Sequence record: PZ452583.1
Strand: one strand, 5' to 3'
Length of the DNA: 64,000 bases
From: a phage
This document shows positions 128-60,683 of the stretch, piece by piece. The notes beneath the pieces are model-generated. The model was not told where the DNA came from. It searched no databases and was given only the letters and a program-made list of their open reading frames with translations. A program made the translations under genes and the position numbers. Position 1 is the first letter of the stretch, and each line of letters starts with the position of its first letter.

Positions 128-453
128 TTAAACCATCCTTTAATACGTTGCCACAAAGTTTTCTGTTGAGCTTTGTTAACACCAATTGAGCGAATAACTG
201 GTTGAGATTCCTGGAATTCTTTATAATCGGCAAGGTAAATTTCGTAAGCTGCATCTGTAAAGGAACTTATCGCTGCCATGAAATTATTGCGAATACCTAC
301 TGGAGCATCTTTACTTTCACGAATAATCATGTATTTACCAGTCTTAATCTTTACAATAGTTCCAAGATAAGCTCCATGGTACCAAATATCCCAACCCTCT
401 TGAGTAGGTTCTGCACAACGACGAAGTTCATTGACAATTTCTAACTTGTTCAT
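124..453 (-). CDS. hypothetical protein (109 aa)
   Basis: ATG at 451-453 with SD GAGGAATAA; sits just downstream of motA. Confidence 0.55.
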
Positions 454-48165: not shown

Positions 48166-48636
48166 TTAATCATGTGTCCACACCCCATCGGTATTTGACC
48201 AAAGTCGCTGATTATCTGATCCTCGCCACAGCTTTTTGGTCGGAAGATTTTTCTCATACTTCCCATCAATAATAACATCAACATATTTAAGCATTTCTAG
48301 TTGTTTAATATCTTCAAACTTATATCCTGTCCACAACCAAATGCTTTTATTGGGATAAAGATTTTTAATAGTTTGAACCACAGAGTGAATCACGTCTCTG
48401 TTATCAGGATAAAGAGGGTCACCTCCGGTTATAGTTAATCCTTCTATATAATCATTATTCAAACATTCAATCAATTGTTCTAGTGTTTCACCAGTGAATG
48501 GAATACCATTTCTAGCATTCCATGTTGATTTATTATAACACCCTTCGCATTTATGCAAACAACCTGTAACGAAAAGAACGACCCTGCATCCAGGGCCATT
48601 CACAAAATCACAGGGATAAAATCTATCATAATTCAT
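48166..48636 (-). CDS. nrdG: NrdG, anaerobic ribonucleotide reductase activating protein
   Basis: 156 aa as T4 NrdG; radical-SAM CxxxCxxC (CLHKCEGC). Confidence 0.85.
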   Translation of the reverse strand: MNYDRFYPCDFVNGPGCRVVLFVTGCLHKCEGCYNKSTWNARNGIPFTGETLEQLIECLNNDYIEGLTITGGDPLYPDNRDVIHSVVQTIKNLYPNKSIWLWTGYKFEDIKQLEMLKYVDVIIDGKYEKNLPTKKLWRGSDNQRLWSNTDGVWTHD

Positions 48637-50450
48637 TGGTGTTTAACCCTATGCATGATTTCTTTATTTTTACCGAGATTAAATCCGCGCTCGTTCGGAT
48701 TTCCCAAATAACCACATGTTCTTCTTATGGTATTCATCTTTTTAGGATCAGTTTCTCCACAAATAGAACAAACAAATCCGTTTTCAGTAGGAGTCATTTC
48801 ATGGGTACTTCCGCATGTAAAACACTTATCTACTGGCATGTTAACACCAAAATAATCTAAATGTTGTGCAGCATAATCCCACACGGCCTCAAGACCTTTT
48901 AAGTTATTTTTCATATCAGGAAGTTCAACATAAGAAATGTGACCACCTGTCGCAATGAAATGATATGGTGCTTCACGAGAAATCTTTTCAAACGGAGTAA
49001 CATTTTCTTCTACTGAAACGTGGAAACTGTTAGTGTACCAGCCTTTATCAGTAACATCCTTTACACTTCCATATTTTTCGGTATCAAGTTTACAGAAGCG
49101 ATAACACAAGTTTTCAGCAGGAGTAGAATACAAACTAAAAGCAAATCCGGTTCTTTCAGTCCATTGTTTAAGATGAGTATTCATTTTAGTTAAAATTTCT
49201 TGTCCAATATCACGACCGACAAGAATATTCAATTCGTGAATACCAATGTATCCTAGAGACACTGAACTTCTACCGTTTTTAAATAACTCAATTATGTCGC
49301 CATCAGGTTTAAGACGAACCCCGAATGCACCTTCTTGGTAAAGAATAGGAGCAACAGTTGCTTTAACTCCTTTTAAGGAACTAATTCTACACATCAAAGC
49401 TTCAAAACATAAATCCATTCGTTCATTGAACAATTCAACAAATTTCTGTTCATTGAATTGTGTTCCAATATAAGAATCTAACGCGATGCGAGGAAGATTC
49501 AATGTTACAACACCAAGATTATTACGTCCATCAAGAATTTCATTGCCAGTCGAATCTTTCCATACGCTCAAGAAACTACGGCAACCCATCGGAGAAACAG
49601 GAACAGATGAACCAGTGATAGCTTTATTGTTCTTAGCTGAAATAATATCAGGATACATCCTTTTGCTTGCACACTCTAGAGCAAGCTGCTTAATATCATA
49701 GTTCGGATCATCTTTATAAAGATTAACACCTTCTTCGACGAACATAACAAGCTTAGGGAAAATAGGAGTTATCCCATCACGACCGAGACCTTTAATACGA
49801 TTTTTCAGAATTGCTTTCTGAATCATTCGTTCAGTCCAGTCAGTTCCCGTACCAAATGTAATTGTTACAAAAGGAGTCTGTCCGTTTGAACTAAAGAGAG
49901 TATTTACTTCATATTCATACGCTTGGAATGCATCGTATACATCTTTTTCTGTTTTAGATTGAGCATAATTTAACGCATCAGCGATTTGCCATTTTTCTGC
50001 ATCCTCAATATGTTTTGCATAGGTGCGTTTAACATAAGGAGAAAGTACTTTATCTACATTAGCAAAAGTCGTTCCGCCATATTGATGGGAAGCAACTTGC
50101 GCAGTAATTTGTGCCATAATTGCAGTAGCAACACCGATTGATTTAGGAGTTTCAATCTGCGCATTACCAAGCTTAAATCCTTTCTCAAGCATTCCTTTTA
50201 AATCTACTAAACAACAATTAGTAAATGGAAGAGCAGGGGAATAATCAATATCGTGGAAATGGATAATTCCGCTTTCATGCGCTTTCATAATAAAAGACGG
50301 GACCATATTTTTGGCAATGTGTTTAGACACAATACCAGCCATAAGGTCCCGTTGAGTTGGAAAAACACGAGAATCTTTATTAGCATTCTCGTTTAAAAGG
50401 TCTTTATTAGTTTTATGAATCAATCCTTCAATTTCTTTTTCAATTGTCAT
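48633..50450 (-). CDS. nrdD: NrdD, anaerobic ribonucleotide reductase
   Basis: 605 aa continuous ORF; C-terminal zinc-ribbon cysteines and glycyl-radical region (RTCGYLG); no intron. Confidence 0.93.
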   Translation of the reverse strand: MTIEKEIEGLIHKTNKDLLNENANKDSRVFPTQRDLMAGIVSKHIAKNMVPSFIMKAHESGIIHFHDIDYSPALPFTNCCLVDLKGMLEKGFKLGNAQIETPKSIGVATAIMAQITAQVASHQYGGTTFANVDKVLSPYVKRTYAKHIEDAEKWQIADALNYAQSKTEKDVYDAFQAYEYEVNTLFSSNGQTPFVTITFGTGTDWTERMIQKAILKNRIKGLGRDGITPIFPKLVMFVEEGVNLYKDDPNYDIKQLALECASKRMYPDIISAKNNKAITGSSVPVSPMGCRSFLSVWKDSTGNEILDGRNNLGVVTLNLPRIALDSYIGTQFNEQKFVELFNERMDLCFEALMCRISSLKGVKATVAPILYQEGAFGVRLKPDGDIIELFKNGRSSVSLGYIGIHELNILVGRDIGQEILTKMNTHLKQWTERTGFAFSLYSTPAENLCYRFCKLDTEKYGSVKDVTDKGWYTNSFHVSVEENVTPFEKISREAPYHFIATGGHISYVELPDMKNNLKGLEAVWDYAAQHLDYFGVNMPVDKCFTCGSTHEMTPTENGFVCSICGETDPKKMNTIRRTCGYLGNPNERGFNLGKNKEIMHRVKHQ

Positions 50451-52074: not shown

Positions 52075-52290
52075 TTACCCCAATTTAACCATACAATCGC
52101 CGTATTTCCACTTAGAAATAGACTTTTCACCATTAGAATAATAAACTTCGAGTTTAGCACGATTATTTTTAATTTGAATAACCTTGGCTGTCATCAAAGT
52201 TCCATACCCATAATAAACTGCAACTTCATCACCTACATATACCGCGCTTCCGCGGTAATCATGAATATAGTCATTTCCTTCGAGCATCAT
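52075..52290 (-). CDS. hypothetical protein (71 aa)
   Basis: ORF track; overlaps nrdC stop. Confidence 0.5.
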   Translation of the reverse strand: MMLEGNDYIHDYRGSAVYVGDEVAVYYGYGTLMTAKVIQIKNNRAKLEVYYSNGEKSISKWKYGDCMVKLG

Positions 52291-52550
52291 TTAAAATATT
52301 CTCGCAGCTGGTCAAATCCACCAATATGACTTCCATCAGGAGCAAATACCTGGGGCATTGTCAAGCCGATTTGAGTATCACGACCTAGTTTAGTCAGAAG
52401 CTCAGCGATTTTCTCATCATCAAAAACACCTTTTTCCGGCATAATGTTGATAAATTCAAACGGCTGTTTCTTCACGGTCAAAAGACGTTTTGCATTATCG
52501 CAATACACACATTTATGAATGTTGCTATCATAACCATATACTTTAAACAT
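52287..52550 (-). CDS. nrdC: NrdC thioredoxin/glutaredoxin
   Basis: 87 aa as T4 NrdC; CVYC active site; SD AAGGAATAAT. Confidence 0.8.
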   Translation of the reverse strand: MFKVYGYDSNIHKCVYCDNAKRLLTVKKQPFEFINIMPEKGVFDDEKIAELLTKLGRDTQIGLTMPQVFAPDGSHIGGFDQLREYFK

Positions 52551-52796: not shown

Positions 52797-53186
52797 TTAA
52801 TCCAAAATATTATTAGGCATTGGTTGAACACTCACAAGTTCTTTAAAGAACTCAGTAGAGTCAGGCAATTTAACCATTTCCGGAGCATGCTTACTGAATT
52901 TATGTTTACATTGACGGCATTTATATTCAAGCTCTGGTTTACGCCAGTTAATCAATTGAACTTGTTCAGTACCGCATTCAGGGCAATTAGGAACGTTTTT
53001 AGAAGCTCTTTCACGTCGTTCAACCATAGCCATAATAGCATCCCATGCTGGAGGTTTAAAATCTAAATCGTCGCAGCCGTGAATCTTTCCACGCATTTCC
53101 ATATCATCTTCCTCACCAGCCATAATAATTTTAATTAAACTAGAATTACTTGAAGCTGCAATGTCTTCTAATAAACGCTTTTTCAT
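52797..53186 (-). CDS. hypothetical zinc-ribbon protein (129 aa)
   Basis: CPECG-x20-CRQC motif. Confidence 0.5.
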
Positions 53187-54112
53187 TTCAATACCTCAAT
53201 AGCATTACGTAAACCATTTGCTTTTGCATTAAGAGCTTTTAACAATTTGGTGTGTTCTGCAATTTGGGCTTCAACTTCAATCAAACGGGCATTGAGATAT
53301 TCACGTTCTTCACTCAGATTATCAACCTTTTCTACTTTAGGCTCTTTTACAACTGTCTTATATGTATTAGGGTTCTTCAGTTTAATTAGAATGCGTGAAC
53401 TGTATAACATTGAACCATTATCTTCGGTTTCGTCATACATTTCCACTACGTCCATAATTTTTAACATCATGCGGAGTTTATAAGACAACGAACGAATAGT
53501 TTTGTTGTGCTTATTAATTTCTTTAGCTGTCATGGTGCCAAGATTACGTGAGTAATAATAAGGAACCTGGATATTAATTAATACTGATGAACCACCTGGC
53601 TTGTGTGTTACTTCATCAGCAATAACCCAGTCCTTAACATGAACTGTATTTGTACGGTCATCGCCCGCGGTAAATAGTTTGCGAGCATGCTTAAAAAGCA
53701 TATTCACTTGGTCATTGAATTGACAAGCAAATTTATCAGCAAATTTAGTTTCAGGAATGGTAGAAAACCAATCAGCCAAATGAGTCTTTTTAACATCATT
53801 AACAATAGTAAATTCAACCAAATCGGTTATAGATGTCTCAGATTTAATGAAGCTCGGCTTCATAAAGTTTTTAATGTTCTCATGAGCTACAGTAGAAGAT
53901 AACATACGAGAACGTTTAAACCATTCAAGCAAATTGCCTAACGAATGAGAATAAGCGTTTTGAGTATCTTTACAGATATGATTTTCCTGACCAACATATT
54001 GAAGGAAATCACGAAGAATATTATTGATTACTGCTCTGTGCCCGATCTGATAATTACGGTGTTTAGTAATAAGACTGTCAAAATAATCAATATAATGTTT
54101 ACGAGTTTTCAT
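53183..54112 (-). CDS. hypothetical protein with C-terminal coiled coil (309 aa), tandem array member A
   Basis: C-terminal heptad-like segment [39 protein letters not shown]. Confidence 0.55.
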   Translation of the reverse strand: MKTRKHYIDYFDSLITKHRNYQIGHRAVINNILRDFLQYVGQENHICKDTQNAYSHSLGNLLEWFKRSRMLSSTVAHENIKNFMKPSFIKSETSITDLVEFTIVNDVKKTHLADWFSTIPETKFADKFACQFNDQVNMLFKHARKLFTAGDDRTNTVHVKDWVIADEVTHKPGGSSVLINIQVPYYYSRNLGTMTAKEINKHNKTIRSLSYKLRMMLKIMDVVEMYDETEDNGSMLYSSRILIKLKNPNTYKTVVKEPKVEKVDNLSEEREYLNARLIEVEAQIAEHTKLLKALNAKANGLRNAIEVLK

Positions 54113-54164
54113 ATTCTTCTCACTTGGTTAATGGTTTATACTCCGAGCCATCCTTGGCTTTAAA

Positions 54165-55166
54165 TTACTTAATTAACTGTAAAGCTTGTTCAAGACGATC
54201 AAGACGATTAACAGATTCTTCCCAAATCCTTTTAGCCTGCTCATATTCTTTCTGCGCTTTATTAGAAATTTCTAGAACTTCTTTATAAGCTTTTTCTAGT
54301 GCAATAACTTCTGGACGAATTTCTACCGGTTCAGGTGAATCGTCAAGATTATCCATTAGTTCCTCAAGGGTAGTTTCTTCTTTAGAAGTATTCACAATTT
54401 CCTCACATTTTTGTTGATAAATTTCTTTATCAGTAGGTGAATAAGCACATTTCACTTCACGAAGACTAATTACAATTTTATATCCTTCCCATCCGCATAT
54501 ATTCTTAAAAGGATATGTATGAATATTTTCTACTGTTTCCATACAAAGTAGTGCAGTCTCTAATTGTCGAGTTATATCACTAGCAATTGAGAAAAATTTA
54601 TTAATATTCTTTTGGTTAGCGTTTGGTGTAAAAAATCCATAATTCACAAAAATAGCTACTTTATTTTCATCAAGCTCATATTCTTTTACGATAATCATAT
54701 CAGAAGCCAAAGGATGAATTTGACGATAATCGCCATAACATAATTTAGAAGCTGATTTTAGAATTTGTCCTTTGAAAAGTCTGAAATTACTAATCCAACG
54801 ACGAGTAAAAATATTCTCAGGGTCTTCTTTATTATTAAGATGATAAGAATTAACATCACCGAACCAATTATATCCTACTACATCTTTAGTTCGTTTAATT
54901 TCTTTCCCAAATTTACTAAGAATATCTCTGTTGACTAAGTATGAAAGAAGACGAGACCCTTTAAAGGTTTTCTTAATGTCATCTTTATCTGTACGACTAG
55001 AAATTTCACGAACTTCATGAATAAATTTGCCGGAAGAAACAATACTTGCATTAGTATTATTGAGCCATTGATTGATAATAGAAATCACACTATTCTTACT
55101 AGACATAGGTTTAACTTTATCATCAATAACGCTGTTGAACGATTTAATATATTCGTTGCGAGTCAT
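54165..55166 (-). CDS. hypothetical protein with C-terminal coiled coil (about 333 aa), member B
   Basis: ATG 55164-55166 with SD GAGGAGATTAAT; C-terminus ...KEYEQAKRIWEESVNRLDRLEQALQLIK. Confidence 0.55.
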   Translation of the reverse strand: MTRNEYIKSFNSVIDDKVKPMSSKNSVISIINQWLNNTNASIVSSGKFIHEVREISSRTDKDDIKKTFKGSRLLSYLVNRDILSKFGKEIKRTKDVVGYNWFGDVNSYHLNNKEDPENIFTRRWISNFRLFKGQILKSASKLCYGDYRQIHPLASDMIIVKEYELDENKVAIFVNYGFFTPNANQKNINKFFSIASDITRQLETALLCMETVENIHTYPFKNICGWEGYKIVISLREVKCAYSPTDKEIYQQKCEEIVNTSKEETTLEELMDNLDDSPEPVEIRPEVIALEKAYKEVLEISNKAQKEYEQAKRIWEESVNRLDRLEQALQLIK

Positions 55167-55194
55167 ATTAATCTCCTCAGTAGAAAGTAAGAAC

Positions 55195-55224
55195 ATTATA
55201 CCACATCCTTGTGGCAAAGTAAAC
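55195..55224 (-). promoter_or_regulatory. early promoter
   Basis: GTTTAC (+55219-55224), 18-nt spacer ending TGG, TATAAT (+55195-55200); -35 overlaps upstream gene stop. Confidence 0.6.
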
Positions 55225-56228
55225 TAGTTCAGTGCATTTAGTGCATTGTTCAATTTAGAACGTTGCTTCGTGAGATTTTTTACTTTTTCTTGAGCTTTTT
55301 CTAGCATCTTTTCAGCTTCTAACACTTCATTAGTTGCTTTAACGAGTTCATCATCTACTGCCTTAAGGGACTTCTCAATCGCATCCGCGTGCCATTTTTC
55401 AACAGGTTTAAGACTCGGATTTTCAACAGGAAGAAAATTCACTTTATTGAATTTCCATGCATCTTTATTACCTGAACTATACATCCAAAATTTAGGATCG
55501 TTTGATGAGTAATTAGTTTGGGGTTCAGGTTTTTTCTCTTGTGTAACTTCGTCCTTTCTCAAAAAATCATATTTAAATGAAACGATCATATCAAGTTCAT
55601 ATGTTGTCGTATCTAATTTAAATCGTTCGAAATGCTGCGAAATCTTAGATTGAACAGCATCAACAACATCCATATACTTAAATGCTTCTGTCAACTGTGA
55701 TTTAAGGCATTCACAAATTGAAAGAGAATTTTTTGTATTAGGTTTAAAGCTAATTCGTGCAGTTCTATTATTTTCTTTTAACGGTCTTACTTCCATCTGA
55801 AGAGTATAACCATCAAATTTCAGATTCTTTAAGTTAATATCAGAACCTTTTAATCGACTAGCCGTAGACAAAATTTGCTTTAATTGTTTACGGAATAGAG
55901 CAATAAATCTCCATTCAAGACGATAATGATTTGGATTAAAAAATCCTGTTGATAAATCAACCTTACTCTGACCAACGCCTTGAACAAATAGAGGATTTTT
56001 ATAATCAATAGTTTTACAGAAATCGGTGAGCTGCTCACGAGCAGTCATTTGAGTAATATACCCTGCTTCATTAAAATGACGTAACCATTCACTGCTATTC
56101 ATATACTTAAAGTGAATATCACGATTAACTTTATCAGGGTCTAAATTATTTTGGCACAAAAATGTCATAACATTACGGGTATAGCTGGCATTACGAACCA
56201 TATCTTCAATTTGAGAACGAGTTTTCAT
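55224..56228 (-). CDS. hypothetical protein with C-terminal coiled coil (334 aa), member C
   Basis: SD AAGGAACAC; C-terminus ...AEKMLEKAQEKVKNLTKQRSKLNNALNALN. Confidence 0.55.
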   Translation of the reverse strand: MKTRSQIEDMVRNASYTRNVMTFLCQNNLDPDKVNRDIHFKYMNSSEWLRHFNEAGYITQMTAREQLTDFCKTIDYKNPLFVQGVGQSKVDLSTGFFNPNHYRLEWRFIALFRKQLKQILSTASRLKGSDINLKNLKFDGYTLQMEVRPLKENNRTARISFKPNTKNSLSICECLKSQLTEAFKYMDVVDAVQSKISQHFERFKLDTTTYELDMIVSFKYDFLRKDEVTQEKKPEPQTNYSSNDPKFWMYSSGNKDAWKFNKVNFLPVENPSLKPVEKWHADAIEKSLKAVDDELVKATNEVLEAEKMLEKAQEKVKNLTKQRSKLNNALNALN

Positions 56229-56236
56229 AGTGTTCC

Positions 56237-57124
56237 TTAAGATTTAAGTAAATCAACAATTTTAATTAATTTTTCACGCTCAGATTTAGCTTTACTACTC
56301 AATCCAGATAGTCTGAAAATTTCATCGTCATACTGTTGAATAGAAATATTCAGCTCTTCAATTTGCTTATTAAAATAATCAATTTGTTCAGAATGTTTTT
56401 CGTTACTACGAACTGGTACAGGTTTTGTAGGAAATTTAGTTAAACTGGATTCATCCGGGCGATAAATTAAAATGCAATTTGAACCAATCGAGCATTTAGC
56501 ACCAGATGAATATTCTAACGTTCCAGCTTCTTTTAAAACTTCAAAAGCTAAACAGAGATGATGCCCCATATTAACATAATCAGTAGAGCGAGCTCTGATA
56601 TAATAATCATCGCCGCGAATACTAAATTTAAAGCATTTAAGGTCTTCTGTATTATTGGTCTTAAAAATCATTTGTTTATCTAGACCTTTAGCTAATCGAG
56701 CGCCTAATGCTAATAATCGTCGTTGATTTTCCCACAAATCTGCGATCATTTGGTCAAATGATAATTTCGGCATTAGTCGACCGTAAAGATCATAGCCTTT
56801 ATTATAATTGCGAAGAATTTCACTTGCATTAATACGAGACAATGCTCCAATTTTATTAAGGGCTTTCATAATGCGATTAGATAAACCCATTCCAGACCCG
56901 TTTGTTCGCTGTAAATGTTTTTCTAATCCAAATCCAATATCAACTTTAAACTTATCTAAAATTTCTGCATGAACATCTCTGTCAATAACATTCAAATCCA
57001 AAGTTGGGTTAAATCTATGAAAAAATTTATCTGGCTCTCCACGACGAAGTACAGTCCATTCATTCAATTTTTTATTAACTAAAGATTTAATTACTGCATT
57101 GACATTATTAATTACTACTGACAT
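56237..57124 (-). CDS. hypothetical protein with C-terminal coiled coil (about 295 aa), member D
   Basis: ATG 57122-57124 with SD GAGGAAAAT; C-terminus ...QQYDDEIFRLSGLSSKAKSEREKLIKIVDLLKS. Confidence 0.55.
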   Translation of the reverse strand: MSVVINNVNAVIKSLVNKKLNEWTVLRRGEPDKFFHRFNPTLDLNVIDRDVHAEILDKFKVDIGFGLEKHLQRTNGSGMGLSNRIMKALNKIGALSRINASEILRNYNKGYDLYGRLMPKLSFDQMIADLWENQRRLLALGARLAKGLDKQMIFKTNNTEDLKCFKFSIRGDDYYIRARSTDYVNMGHHLCLAFEVLKEAGTLEYSSGAKCSIGSNCILIYRPDESSLTKFPTKPVPVRSNEKHSEQIDYFNKQIEELNISIQQYDDEIFRLSGLSSKAKSEREKLIKIVDLLKS

Positions 57125-57131
57125 ATTTTCC

Positions 57132-57539
57132 TCACTCAATTTCAATTTTACTAAATACGCAGAATATGATGGAAAAGACTATATAAGCACCGCATACAGA
57201 TTGAACTAATACCATTCCAAAGAACCAAACAATATTATCAAACAATGTCTGTTTTACGTCGAAAGGACGTAAACTTACAGTAATATTATCGCCTTTTTCT
57301 ATTGATGAATACATCTCTGGGGAAATATATTCGCTAAATCTATAACCGTCTTTGAGTTCATATACGGCAATAAACGATAAACTAGACCCCTTTCCTTGAG
57401 TTCCTGTAAGGGTATTAACTACAGTAACATCATAATCTTTATAATGCATATAATCATTAATTGCGTAATAACCATATGCAACTACTACGCATAAACAACA
57501 TATCAATAAATTCAATCTTTTAATTATCAACTGTTTCAT
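57132..57539 (-). CDS. membrane protein (135 aa)
   Basis: N-terminal and C-terminal hydrophobic segments. Confidence 0.5.
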   Translation of the reverse strand: MKQLIIKRLNLLICCLCVVVAYGYYAINDYMHYKDYDVTVVNTLTGTQGKGSSLSFIAVYELKDGYRFSEYISPEMYSSIEKGDNITVSLRPFDVKQTLFDNIVWFFGMVLVQSVCGAYIVFSIIFCVFSKIEIE

Positions 57540-57594: not shown

Positions 57595-58122
57595 TTATGC
57601 GAGTACCGTCTTTAACCGTTCTTCAAACTTCCGAAGAGTATTCTGGCGTTCAGCTCTTTGCTTTTTGTAAGTTTCAATACGCTCTGAAATGAGAGTGTAT
57701 CGTTCATTTACTGATTCTTTCATAAAATCAGGAATTTCACGAGAAGCTTTAATCTCGTCAAATTTATCAATAACAGCTTGCTCTTCAGCAATTAAGTTAT
57801 CATACATCAAAATATCTTTCTTGATGAACTCAATATCTTCTTGAGTTACACGAGATAATTTAGATGCTTTATCCTTTTTGTACTGTTCGTTAGTATCACG
57901 AGACCAGTGTAATGTACGATTTTTATTCGTATTCTTGTAAATTTCTACAATACCAATCTCATCGATAATAACGATCCAATTCCAACGGGATTTGTAAATT
58001 TGTCCTCCATCAACCGTGATTTCACCACCGATTGAGACATCATTAAAGAACTTGCTTTGAGCTTCAGATTTAAATTTACCATCATTGTAGTTTACCAAGT
58101 TGAAAATATCTTTAGCATTCAT
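57595..58122 (-). CDS. hypothetical protein (about 175 aa)
   Basis: start MNAKDIF... after SD GGAGGAACAG; ORF-track extension is translated leader. Confidence 0.5.
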   Translation of the reverse strand: MNAKDIFNLVNYNDGKFKSEAQSKFFNDVSIGGEITVDGGQIYKSRWNWIVIIDEIGIVEIYKNTNKNRTLHWSRDTNEQYKKDKASKLSRVTQEDIEFIKKDILMYDNLIAEEQAVIDKFDEIKASREIPDFMKESVNERYTLISERIETYKKQRAERQNTLRKFEERLKTVLA

Positions 58123-58586: not shown

Positions 58587-59555
58587 TTATTTCAGAAGAG
58601 TAACCTCAGCGATTTCTTCCCAACCGTTTTTGTCGGTCATAATAAAGTCAGCAAGATAAAGCGCAGTACGCAGTGAAACATTGCGTAAACGATTAACATT
58701 GACTTTCATCCATGATAATGCTTTATAAGTTTCTTCATCAGAAAGACCGCGCTTTTGCATCATGTCAGTTGAAAGAATAACATCTTCAACCCTGACCATA
58801 ATTTCTTCATTAGTGTGAACACCCAAATCCAAATAAACTGAGCGGGACACTAATGCTTGTAAATGTGGAGCAAGTTTAGTACCACGGTCTAATTCGCGGT
58901 CAATGTCAACGTTTGTGATAAAAACAATCGTTCCTTTAAATTCAAACTCACGCTCAATGCCTTTTTCTTCTAAGTAAGAAGATGCGGTGCTCCAGCAGAC
59001 TTTACGGGTCTCTCCGGTGTCCAGAGCAGCTTTCAGAAGATTAAGAATGTCCATATCAGAGAAAACATCCACATCATCAATCAAAAGGACAGAATTCTCT
59101 TCACGATTATTCCAAAGCTGTTCATAAAGACCGATACCAGAGATTTTACCATTAATGCTTTTATATTCAATGTATCCAATATCATTTGCTTTATTTAAAG
59201 CTTTATCTAAAGAATATGTTTTACCTATACCTGCCGCGCCAGAGATAATTAATGAACGAATATTTCCATTAATAATACCATTCGTCATCATTCCCATAAC
59301 ATTAAATCTTTTATTAATGCGGGTTTTCATATCTTCATATGATTCTTTAACTTCTTCAACTTTTACACCATCATATGAAATGTCTGATTTGTAAACCCAA
59401 ACACCGCGACGTTTACCATCAATTTCAACAAAAACTTTACCATCTCCTTGTGCATCTACCGGAGCATTATCTGGGAACCATTCACCTAAGAGCTCAAAAG
59501 TTCCAGAGATTTCTTTACCGAAGTAGATACCCTTATTGATAGTTACAGTTTTCAT
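58587..59555 (-). CDS. P-loop NTPase (about 322 aa)
   Basis: Walker A GAAGIGKT and Walker B-like LLIDDVD; start MKTVTINKG... after SD GGAGAA. Confidence 0.6.
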   Translation of the reverse strand: MKTVTINKGIYFGKEISGTFELLGEWFPDNAPVDAQGDGKVFVEIDGKRRGVWVYKSDISYDGVKVEEVKESYEDMKTRINKRFNVMGMMTNGIINGNIRSLIISGAAGIGKTYSLDKALNKANDIGYIEYKSINGKISGIGLYEQLWNNREENSVLLIDDVDVFSDMDILNLLKAALDTGETRKVCWSTASSYLEEKGIEREFEFKGTIVFITNVDIDRELDRGTKLAPHLQALVSRSVYLDLGVHTNEEIMVRVEDVILSTDMMQKRGLSDEETYKALSWMKVNVNRLRNVSLRTALYLADFIMTDKNGWEEIAEVTLLK

Positions 59556-59619: not shown

Positions 59620-59649
59620 AACTTTGTGAAAAATTTTTGAAATAAAAAA

Positions 59650-59667
59650 GGGAGCCCGAAGGCTCCC
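59650..59667 (-). terminator. intrinsic terminator
   Basis: GGGAGCC-UUCG-GGCUCCC hairpin followed on minus strand by UUUUUUAUUU. Confidence 0.7.
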
Positions 59668-59669
59668 TA

Positions 59670-60683
59670 TCATTTATAATAACTTCGATGGTTTTCAAGA
59701 TAGACCTTCTCAAGGAAGTCATCCCAGAAACCCATGTCTACTGTTTTAGGCATACCATTCTTAGAAGCGTCAGTAGATGCTGCTTCTACTTGATCGACCA
59801 CATCTTCCAAAAACTCTTGAACTGTTTTAAATGGATGTTTACCCAACTTCACGTCGAGAATAAATGGAGCATCTTGGAGTGGATAAACCAAGTCACCAGT
59901 TTTGTAAATTTCCAATAGTTGAAGTCCACCACGACAAGCATGACTCAGAGCTTTCCAGTCAATACCTTCATTGGCTTCGGCCTTACGAGCACGTTCACCA
60001 TATTCAGCATCTAATTTGTTCAGTGACTGCTTAAGCTCAATAAGAGAAAGCGTTGTCTGATATTTACGACCCAACACAGTGTAGAACGTTTGTGGGCCTG
60101 TTTTCTCATGATTATGGAACACCCATTCACAGAATTCGTTTTCTGGAAGACGATGCTTAATATCTTCAACTTTAGTGCGACGCTGCTTAATGGAACCGTC
60201 TTCTTGGTAATCAACCCATTGCTCAGGGATTTGATTAACTACTTTCAATACATCACGTAATGCAGCCAAACGAGAACCCTTGACACCGTATTTAGAAGCT
60301 TGCTTGCGGACATATCCTAAATATGATTTCATGTTAGTCGTATAAAAACGAGAACGGTTGTCTTGAATAAACTTCCACACATCAGGCAAATCTGATTTAA
60401 CTACTAGTTCAGGTGGAGTGTGAAGCATATCTAATGCTACGGTTTCACCATCTGCTGCTAATTTAAAGAAATATTTAAGACTGTATAGTTCATGGTCAAT
60501 ATCATCTTTAGTGTTTTTAGATGATGTGTTGTTAGTGTTTTTACTCATGTGCTCTTTGACATTTCCGATAAGAATATCGCGAGCAGGAGGAACAAAGATT
60601 TCTTTAAAATCTACATCAGATTCTGGGGTAGAAGTTCCATAAAGATGACTACCAAAATAGCTTTTCATTACTGTTTTCATCAT
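59670..60683 (-). CDS. nucleotidyltransferase-fold protein (337 aa)
   Basis: N-terminal GS-x9-DVD (YFGSHLYGTSTPESDVDF) plus downstream acidic residue (VALDML), the minimal Pol-beta-like NTase signature. Confidence 0.5.
   Translation of the reverse strand: MMKTVMKSYFGSHLYGTSTPESDVDFKEIFVPPARDILIGNVKEHMSKNTNNTSSKNTKDDIDHELYSLKYFFKLAADGETVALDMLHTPPELVVKSDLPDVWKFIQDNRSRFYTTNMKSYLGYVRKQASKYGVKGSRLAALRDVLKVVNQIPEQWVDYQEDGSIKQRRTKVEDIKHRLPENEFCEWVFHNHEKTGPQTFYTVLGRKYQTTLSLIELKQSLNKLDAEYGERARKAEANEGIDWKALSHACRGGLQLLEIYKTGDLVYPLQDAPFILDVKLGKHPFKTVQEFLEDVVDQVEAASTDASKNGMPKTVDMGFWDDFLEKVYLENHRSYYK

Follow-up and report, generated by a model that had tools for sequence, protein, structure and literature searches.

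Four tandem genes distal to nrdC

We analyzed a block of four consecutive genes, nrdC.3 to nrdC.6, in a 64,000-nucleotide stretch of phage DNA (sequence record PZ452583.1; this whole stretch is referred to below as the window). The sampled genome is that of a Tequatrovirus (T4-like phage). The four minus-strand open reading frames (ORFs) correspond to nrdC.3 (53183-54112, 309 amino acids (aa)), nrdC.4 (54165-55166, 333 aa from the ATG), nrdC.5 (55224-56228, 334 aa) and nrdC.6 (56237-57124, 295 aa from the ATG), the names under which they are labeled in the RB51 and RB32 records. An earlier examination of the DNA without database searches (hereafter, the sequence-only reading) had placed four ORFs at these coordinates, in a block distal to nrdC, and both statements were confirmed. 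nrdC itself is located at 52287-52550, and the order of genes, all on the minus strand, is nrdD, gene 49, nrdC, nrdC.1, nrdC.2, nrdC.3-nrdC.6 and then nrdC.7 to nrdC.11. The 3.96-kb block showed 97% nucleotide identity to Escherichia phage vB_EcoM-G28, and 657 phage records matched it, nearly all of which were Tequatrovirus. The program-made ORF list contained longer, TTG-started versions of nrdC.4 and nrdC.6. Because the TTG extension of nrdC.4 overlaps a promoter (described below), the ATG at 55166, which has a GAGGAG Shine-Dalgarno site, is the sensible start of this gene.

Each of the four proteins had a full-length match to its own family in Pfam or PHROGs. nrdC.3 and nrdC.4 represent one branch and are both members of phrog_1435 (E-values of 8e-116 and 2e-166, respectively), and homologs of nrdC.4 carry PF26897. 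nrdC.5 corresponds to phrog_2351 and to DUF7235 (PF23882; 387.7 bits versus a cut-off of 30, residues 1-334), and nrdC.6 corresponds to phrog_2257, in a family that carries PF26899 (Phage_T4_Y05B). The gene at 55224-56228 is the ortholog of T4 nrdC.5, as judged by position and identity: gene order around nrdC.5 was the same in the T4 record (L001), and the two proteins were 90% identical by BLASTP and 92% by codon alignment. nrdC.4 was likewise 90% identical to T4 nrdC.4 at the amino acid level.

Relationship among the four families

Pfam and PHROGs each distribute the four genes among three families (PF26897 or phrog_1435 for nrdC.3 and nrdC.4, PF23882 or phrog_2351 for nrdC.5, and PF26899 or phrog_2257 for nrdC.6), and BLASTP recovered a single pair, nrdC.3 and nrdC.4, with 24% identity over 226 residues. 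A first-pass hhalign comparison of the four family alignments gave a probability of 98% (E-value of 1e-13) for this pair and 5-27% for all others. Links across families became clear upon addition of two sets of sequences. The first set (bridging proteins) consisted of P0235, P0237 and P0238, full-length metagenomic proteins found among matches to the nrdC.6 profile. The second set (single-copy representatives) consisted of single-copy-type genes from Moonvirus, Jiaodavirus, Karamvirus and an Acinetobacter phage, whose regions were fetched using nrdC.10 as an anchor; the same region was also taken from Mosigvirus and Dhakavirus.

The bridging profile matched nrdC.6 with a probability of 98.9% (E-value of 2e-17), nrdC.5 with 98.1% (9e-14), the single-copy representatives with 97.4% (1.4e-11) and nrdC.3/nrdC.4 with 94.5% (7.5e-8). 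The single-copy representatives in turn matched nrdC.3/nrdC.4 (93.4%, 2.5e-7), nrdC.5 (92.8%, 4.1e-7) and nrdC.6 (92.6%, 4.6e-7), and nrdC.5 matched nrdC.3/nrdC.4 directly (92.0%, 6.5e-7), in columns of the N-terminal domain only. Twenty controls with reversed templates all gave 0.5% or less, the neighboring genes nrdC.2, nrdC.8 and nrdC.10 gave no more than 1.2% against the family profiles, and all unrelated comparison sets remained at or below 4%.

The N-terminal parts and the tails were also compared separately. With the last 60 residues removed, linking pairs still gave 78-96%, including 96.4% for bridging proteins and nrdC.6, 91.3% for bridging proteins and nrdC.3/nrdC.4, 84.6% for bridging proteins and nrdC.5, 89.2% for nrdC.5 and nrdC.3/nrdC.4, and 91.2% for nrdC.3/nrdC.4 and single-copy representatives. 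With tails only, the bridging profile matched nrdC.6 (97.5%), nrdC.5 (97.0%) and the single-copy representatives (88%), and the tail of nrdC.8, used as a control, gave 2.3% or less. Since the N-terminal parts are homologous on their own, and so are the tails of nrdC.5 and nrdC.6, the four genes do not represent unrelated heads grafted onto a common tail.

Curated models pointed in the same direction. The Pfam DUF7235 model matched P0237 at 30.2 bits (E-value of 4e-7) and P0238 over its N-terminal part (E-value of 1e-4), and these bridging proteins carry PF26899, the family of nrdC.6. When compared with DUF7235 directly, nrdC.3, nrdC.4 and nrdC.6 did not reach the gathering score. The superfamily alignment contained four conserved blocks: L-S-x3-A-x3-L-x2-F-x-K; a helix-turn W-x-F...L-L-x2-A-x-R-L-x2-G; L-x2-A-L-x2-M-x2-V; and a P-V linker, after which the tail ends in (Q/E)R-x-K-L-x2-A-L-x2-L-K.

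Taken as profile evidence, these comparisons indicate that old duplication of the entire gene gave rise to all four from a single ancestor, with homology over essentially the whole length. The sequence-only reading had suggested old duplications, and had proposed pairwise and profile alignment of the four proteins as a check; a relationship was indeed found, by way of the bridging sequences, and it extends to the N-terminal parts taken alone. Relative to Pfam, PHROGs and the papers searched, the new element is that the four genes and the single-copy genes of other T4-like genera, including those of Karamvirus, Jiaodavirus, Moonvirus and Acinetobacter phages, form one superfamily. In this way, three database families of unknown function are merged into one.

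Predicted structure and the C-terminal helix

An AlphaFold model of nrdC.6, built from a superfamily alignment of 60 sequences, had a mean predicted local distance difference test score (pLDDT) of 82.2 and a predicted template modeling score of 0.67. Helices occupied residues 3-150 and were followed by two beta-hairpins with a helix between them (168-221), a disordered segment at 227-240 and a long helix. The plan predicted for the family starts with a helical N-terminal part, continues with a beta-beta-alpha-beta-beta unit and a disordered linker that contains proline, and ends in a long C-terminal helix. Structural neighbors of the nrdC.6 model in BFVD (E-value of 0.001 or less) were limited to nrdC.6 orthologs and proteins of 300-335 aa from T4-like phages; those that were not orthologs came from Karamvirus, Pectobacterium PM2, Acj9, Acj61, Klebsiella Mineola and Citrobacter Merlin and shared 11-17% identity. 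Sequence searches of PDB with the family profiles yielded no relative, only spurious matches to designed helical repeats and ribosomal proteins. A second new aspect of the result is a predicted one: nrdC.6, as modeled, has a fold without a solved structural relative.

Columns conserved in all lineages consisted of the hydrophobic core together with a few Lys/Arg, Ser, Gly/Ala and Pro residues and one Glu, which is located in the tail helix. They included no Asp, His or Cys and nothing that looked catalytic, and searches of NCBIfam and PADLOC gave nothing above noise.

The tails were examined with an ad hoc heptad score, which takes the best 28-residue window of each protein and expresses it as a z score against shuffles. 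In all four proteins the best window was at the C-terminus, with z scores of 2.1-5.2. The helix so defined is encoded, always on the minus strand, at 53186-53326 in nrdC.3 (approximately residues 263-309, best window 262-289), at 54168-54308 in nrdC.4 (approximately residues 287-333, placed by heptad score and register), at 55230-55406 in nrdC.5 (residues 275-333, AlphaFold pLDDT of 71-92, z score of 5.2) and at 56243-56392 in nrdC.6 (residues 245-294, pLDDT of about 88). It is 45-59 residues long across the four proteins and was a single uninterrupted helix in the AlphaFold models of nrdC.6 and nrdC.5, and the tails of nrdC.3 and nrdC.4 were colinear with those of the other members in the alignment and had the same heptad register. 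In nrdC.3, the a positions are V R L I L A I and the d positions L L V H L L L. Over approximately seven heptads of the superfamily alignment, which covered six lineages, 83% of a and d positions were hydrophobic or Ala, compared to 26% elsewhere, and the nrdC.5 lineage and the Moonvirus copy had an insertion of exactly seven residues, i.e., one heptad, which preserved the register. The tails thus contain a continuous heptad repeat with a hydrophobic a/d seam, which also includes several Ala, Ser and Arg residues. A Fourier scan at a period of 3.5 residues did not rank the tails first.

The heptad-like C-terminus described in the sequence-only reading is therefore real, but its length is 45-59 residues rather than about 35. 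That reading had made itself dependent on a detectable relationship among the N-terminal domains and on coiled-coil propensity, and both were observed, the former in the N-terminal profile matches and the latter in the heptad score.

A heptad-like helix, with its best window at residues 145-172, was also found at the end of nrdC.8 (57595-58122, 175 aa). We considered this gene as a fifth member of the family and rejected it, given hhalign probabilities of no more than 1.2% for the whole protein and 2.3% for the tail.

Promoter and expression

An early-type promoter was detected before nrdC.4 at 55195-55223 on the minus strand. It consists of GTTTAC, a 17-nt spacer and TATAAT with an upstream TG, is followed by the GAGGAG Shine-Dalgarno site, fills part of a 57-nt intergenic gap and matches the form of T4 early promoters. 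Its hexamers and the Shine-Dalgarno site did not vary among the window, T4 and Dhakavirus dhaeg, and the spacer differed. As the region contained 34 promoter-like sites versus 35.3 in shuffled sequence, support for this site comes only from its position and conservation. Two members had been thought to possess their own early promoter or a strong Shine-Dalgarno site; this applies to nrdC.4, with its promoter and GAGGAG, but no other site qualifies as a promoter. The gap between nrdC.5 and nrdC.6 is 8 nt and nrdC.6 overlaps nrdC.7, which suggests that nrdC.5 and nrdC.6 are probably read from upstream promoters. nrdC.5 has been described as an early gene (Srikant et al., PMC9391042).

Distribution, copy number and divergence

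The family is confined to T4-like phages (Straboviridae). When the nrdC.6 profile was run with HMMER against all of 1.84 billion representative proteins, only 16 matches were obtained, and a pattern-based scan of species-representative bacterial genomes, which has limited sensitivity, found no relatives. When the hidden Markov models (HMMs) of the family were run against 305 ORFs of at least 100 aa from the window and 11 other loci, they recovered only these genes and a weak second copy in Acj61. In every lineage, family genes were located just upstream of nrdC.2 or nrdC.

Copy number varied from one to four. A single copy was present in Karamvirus, Jiaodavirus, Moonvirus and two long metagenomic T4-like contigs, two copies in Acinetobacter phage Acj61, three in Mosigvirus (nrdC.3, a diverged nrdC.5 and a diverged nrdC.6) and in Dhakavirus (nrdC.6, a diverged nrdC.5 and nrdC.4), and four in Tequatrovirus.

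Divergence from T4 was unevenly distributed among the genes. The ratio of nonsynonymous to synonymous substitution rates (dN/dS) was 0.20-0.29 for nrdC.3 to nrdC.5, 0.08 for nrdC.6, 0.07 for nrdC.8 and 0.03 for nrdC.10. Alleles of nrdC.3 across phage records fell near 100%, 75% and 60% identity, the group at approximately 75% being the Mosigvirus copies, and identity falls to 60% within the genus. The nrdC.3 of the window had 61% amino acid identity to that of T4, with a synonymous substitution rate (dS) of 1.07, and nrdC.2 had 77%. The dS of the nrdC.2-nrdC.3 segment (52797-54112) was about 1, compared to 0.09-0.21 in its flanks, and the segment is therefore an allele swapped in relative to T4. 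nrdC.3 was closer to the Mosigvirus copies (77% at the amino acid level; 82-86% at the nucleotide level within the block's first 838 bases) than to T4.

Two rearranged members were noticed. In P0057 (299 aa, on a 167-kb contig), the central part of nrdC.5 is naturally fused in frame to the C-terminal half of nrdC.3, and nrdC.4 has been deleted; nrdC.5 and nrdC.3 are joined at non-equivalent positions. P0059 of Shigella phage Sf25 (378 aa) is an nrdC.6 ortholog, 97% identical, with an N-terminal extension of approximately 80 residues, which may reflect fusion to the gene upstream or else an artifact of annotation.

In Jiaodavirus and Karamvirus (L005 12257-13045, L006 12683-13456), an unrelated conserved gene of approximately 260 aa, which has no heptad tail, was located directly upstream of the single family member. 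In the metagenomic contigs, genes of 256 and 259 aa, and thus close to it in length, were located nearby upstream.

Counter-defense as a candidate function

A phenotype has been reported for T4 nrdC.5. An evolved T4 that had acquired large compensatory deletions could no longer plate on ECOR17; deletion of dsr1 in ECOR17 restored plating of this phage, cloned dsr1 conferred protection on MG1655, and infection of dsr1 cells by the deletion phage was restored when T4 nrdC.5 was expressed in trans (Srikant, Guegler and Laub, eLife 2022, PMC9391042). DSR1 is a SIR2-domain NADase whose tetratricopeptide repeat (TPR) sensor domain is reported to recognize major capsid proteins of phages (2026 preprint, PMC12803255), which makes a binder that blocks the sensor plausible. 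Our literature searches found no mechanism for NrdC.5 and no study of nrdC.3, nrdC.4 or nrdC.6. The nrdC.5 of the window shares position, 90-92% amino acid identity and a full-length 387.7-bit match with T4 NrdC.5 (DUF7235, PMC9391042), and it may, like the T4 allele, overcome DSR1. Whereas the T4 study dealt with nrdC.5 as a lone, uncharacterized early gene, the present analysis places it among four paralogs. Given that nrdC.5 is known to disarm a bacterial immune enzyme, the other three genes are good candidates for a similar job.

The explanation that we favor, with somewhat more confidence than doubt, is that of an expanded, fast-diverging, phage-only family of non-enzymatic early counter-defense binders. 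The tandem copies go back to ancient duplications of a single protein restricted to these phages, which has expanded and diversified in some genera. The genes are expressed early and can be dispensed with in laboratory hosts, and according to this explanation their products would act as non-enzymatic binders that neutralize host anti-phage sensors. NrdC.5 would block the SIR2-type NADase DSR1, and the paralogs, together with the sharply different nrdC.3 alleles, would cover other targets or target variants, so that nrdC.3, nrdC.4 and nrdC.6 may have counter-defense roles of their own. The heptad helix would oligomerize the proteins, possibly as mixed oligomers. The sequence-only reading had proposed a family of target-specific modules sharing an oligomerization domain; for such modules there is one published data point, T4 nrdC.5 against DSR1 (PMC9391042), and we infer the rest.

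Several observations weigh against parts of this explanation. With regard to common ancestry, the direct links of nrdC.6 to nrdC.5 (15%) and to nrdC.3/nrdC.4 (5%) were weak, and linkage of nrdC.6 depends on the three metagenomic bridging sequences and the four single-copy genus representatives. The nrdC.3/nrdC.4 tail alone gave 9-23%, and its homology was not independently supported. HMMs of the tails only (last 45 residues) had no cross-matches among the original four families, for which a profile score anchored at the C-terminus was also no better than that of in-register shifts, implying generic heptad similarity only. An AlphaFold model of nrdC.5 from its own shallow alignment was poor (pLDDT of 52), with the same order of elements as nrdC.6. 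With regard to diversification, dN/dS was below 1 in every gene, so that positive selection was not demonstrated, and nrdC.6 was as constrained as neighboring genes. Finally, the phenotype concerns one of four genes, comes from one paper and was obtained with the T4 allele rather than that of the window; direct binding of NrdC.5 to DSR1 is what we infer from it, and oligomerization would follow from the tail, the modeled proteins being monomers.

Of the two main alternatives, one, which we consider rather unlikely, concerns the tail. The C-terminal helix could be a docking helix for one common host or phage partner, or could pack on the globular part, with specificity provided by the N-terminal part. 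The polar end motif (Q/E)R-x-K-L-x-x-A-L-x-x-L-K, which is kept across lineages beyond the generic needs of a coiled coil, would suit such a helix, as would the Lys/Arg that all groups have at nrdC.6 position 285, the several Ala, Ser and Arg residues in the a/d seam and the rank of the tails in the Fourier scan. However, seven uninterrupted heptads with 83% hydrophobic residues or Ala at a and d, and an insertion of exactly one heptad that keeps the register in the nrdC.5 lineage, weigh against this alternative, as does the disordered linker between the helix and the globular part of the nrdC.6 model.

The other main alternative, which is also unlikely, is that the genes are true paralogs with a general function in host takeover or regulation, for example as adaptors acting on host transcription, the nucleoid or proteolysis, and that DSR1 is affected indirectly or through a side activity of a single member. 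Early, dispensable genes with non-enzymatic-looking products would fit this function as well, nrdC.5 alone among the members has a phenotype, and both the strong constraint on nrdC.6 (dN/dS of 0.08) and the retention of a single copy across many genera are more readily explained by a conserved host target than by an arms race. On the other hand, the sole experimental datum is a defense-specific rescue (PMC9391042), and expansion of copy number and nrdC.3 alleles at 60% identity are typical of counter-defense loci.

A metabolic alternative, in which the proteins do not bind a defense protein but are enzymes that counter depletion of nicotinamide adenine dinucleotide (NAD+) in the manner of NAD+ reconstitution pathways, appears very improbable. 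It draws on the fact that DSR1 is an NADase, on reports that phages can rebuild NAD+, and on the neighboring nrdC.11, a nucleotidyltransferase (PF10127). The least probable alternative, that the genes are unrelated and came by similar lengths and a convergent coiled-coil tail through domain shuffling or chance, is in line with the single BLASTP pair, the three separate Pfam and PHROGs families and the tail-only HMMs, but is largely refuted by matches of 78-96% between linking N-terminal domains with clean controls, by the DUF7235 matches to bridging proteins, by the syntenic position in every genus and by nrdC.8, whose tail is similar and yet scores as unrelated.

The preferred counter-defense explanation has a bolder form, which is speculative and in our view quite unlikely. 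Here, the family would be a diversifying anti-sensor platform, in which each paralog or allele blocks a different host pattern-recognition sensor (e.g., the TPR-type sensors of DSR1 and Avs7, which read the major capsid protein) and the heptad tails assemble mixed oligomers of co-expressed paralogs. Were this the case, the phage would gain one multi-specific inhibitor particle early in infection.

Several known systems offer points of comparison. A working analogy is DSAD1, a phage inhibitor of the DSR2 SIR2 NADase, in that a phage protein is reported to disarm a SIR2-domain sensor-effector that depletes NAD+; no similarity in sequence or fold between the NrdC.3-NrdC.6 family and DSAD1 was found. 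The T4 dmd-tifA-adfA anti-toxin island and the internal proteins IPI-IPIII (PMC9391042) are likewise dispensable, fast-diverging accessory clusters that widen host range, and compensatory deletions likewise remove them at no cost on laboratory strains. Their sequences are unrelated to nrdC.3-nrdC.6. T4 internal proteins are packaged via an N-terminal capsid-targeting sequence and then cleaved, and the NrdC N-termini (MKTR-type) resemble this sequence only superficially. The capsid-targeting sequence of T4 internal proteins ends in an (L/I)-x-E cleavage motif. We inspected the N-termini of the four proteins (MKTRKHYIDYF, MTRNEYIKSF, MKTRSQIEDMV and MSVVINNV), and rejected a capsid-targeting role for the MKT N-termini, as no (L/I)-x-E site was present in the first 15 or so residues.

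As the genes are known T4 ORFs, one of which has a published phenotype, they do not constitute a new type of system. Although T4 serves as the reference lytic phage, a large part of its early accessory gene content still lacks an assigned function. A third new element is that the tie to nrdC.5, an adjacent gene with a proven counter-defense effect, makes nrdC.3, nrdC.4 and nrdC.6 concrete counter-defense candidates. In addition to defining a predicted fold without a solved relative, the family provides material for studies of how specificity evolves, including a series of one to four copies across genera, three classes of nrdC.3 alleles and a tail that can be swapped or deleted.

Neighboring genes and other sites

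On the nrdC side of the block, nrdC.2 (52797-53186) encodes 129 aa compared to 104 aa in T4, and contains a CxxC...CxxC zinc-ribbon motif with weak matches to Pfam zinc-ribbon families. Further in this direction, nrdD (48633-50450) is one uninterrupted ORF of 605 aa, whereas in the T4 record (L001) it is split around a homing-endonuclease gene.

On the other side, nrdC.10 (58587-59555) encodes a P-loop/AAA-type protein with weak matches to models of STAND-type nucleoside triphosphatases, and its conservation extends from T4 to Vibrio and jumbo phages, with 1312 phage records. On the metagenomic contigs, orthologs of nrdC.11 (59670-60683) belong to the RlaP nucleotidyltransferase family (PF10127). 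Conservation of nrdC.10 and nrdC.11 is far greater than that of the four-gene block. Between them, at 59649-59668, a G+C-rich hairpin with an 8-bp stem, AGGGAGCC TTCG GGCTCCCT, is followed by a T-run and is the strongest terminator-like site in the region.

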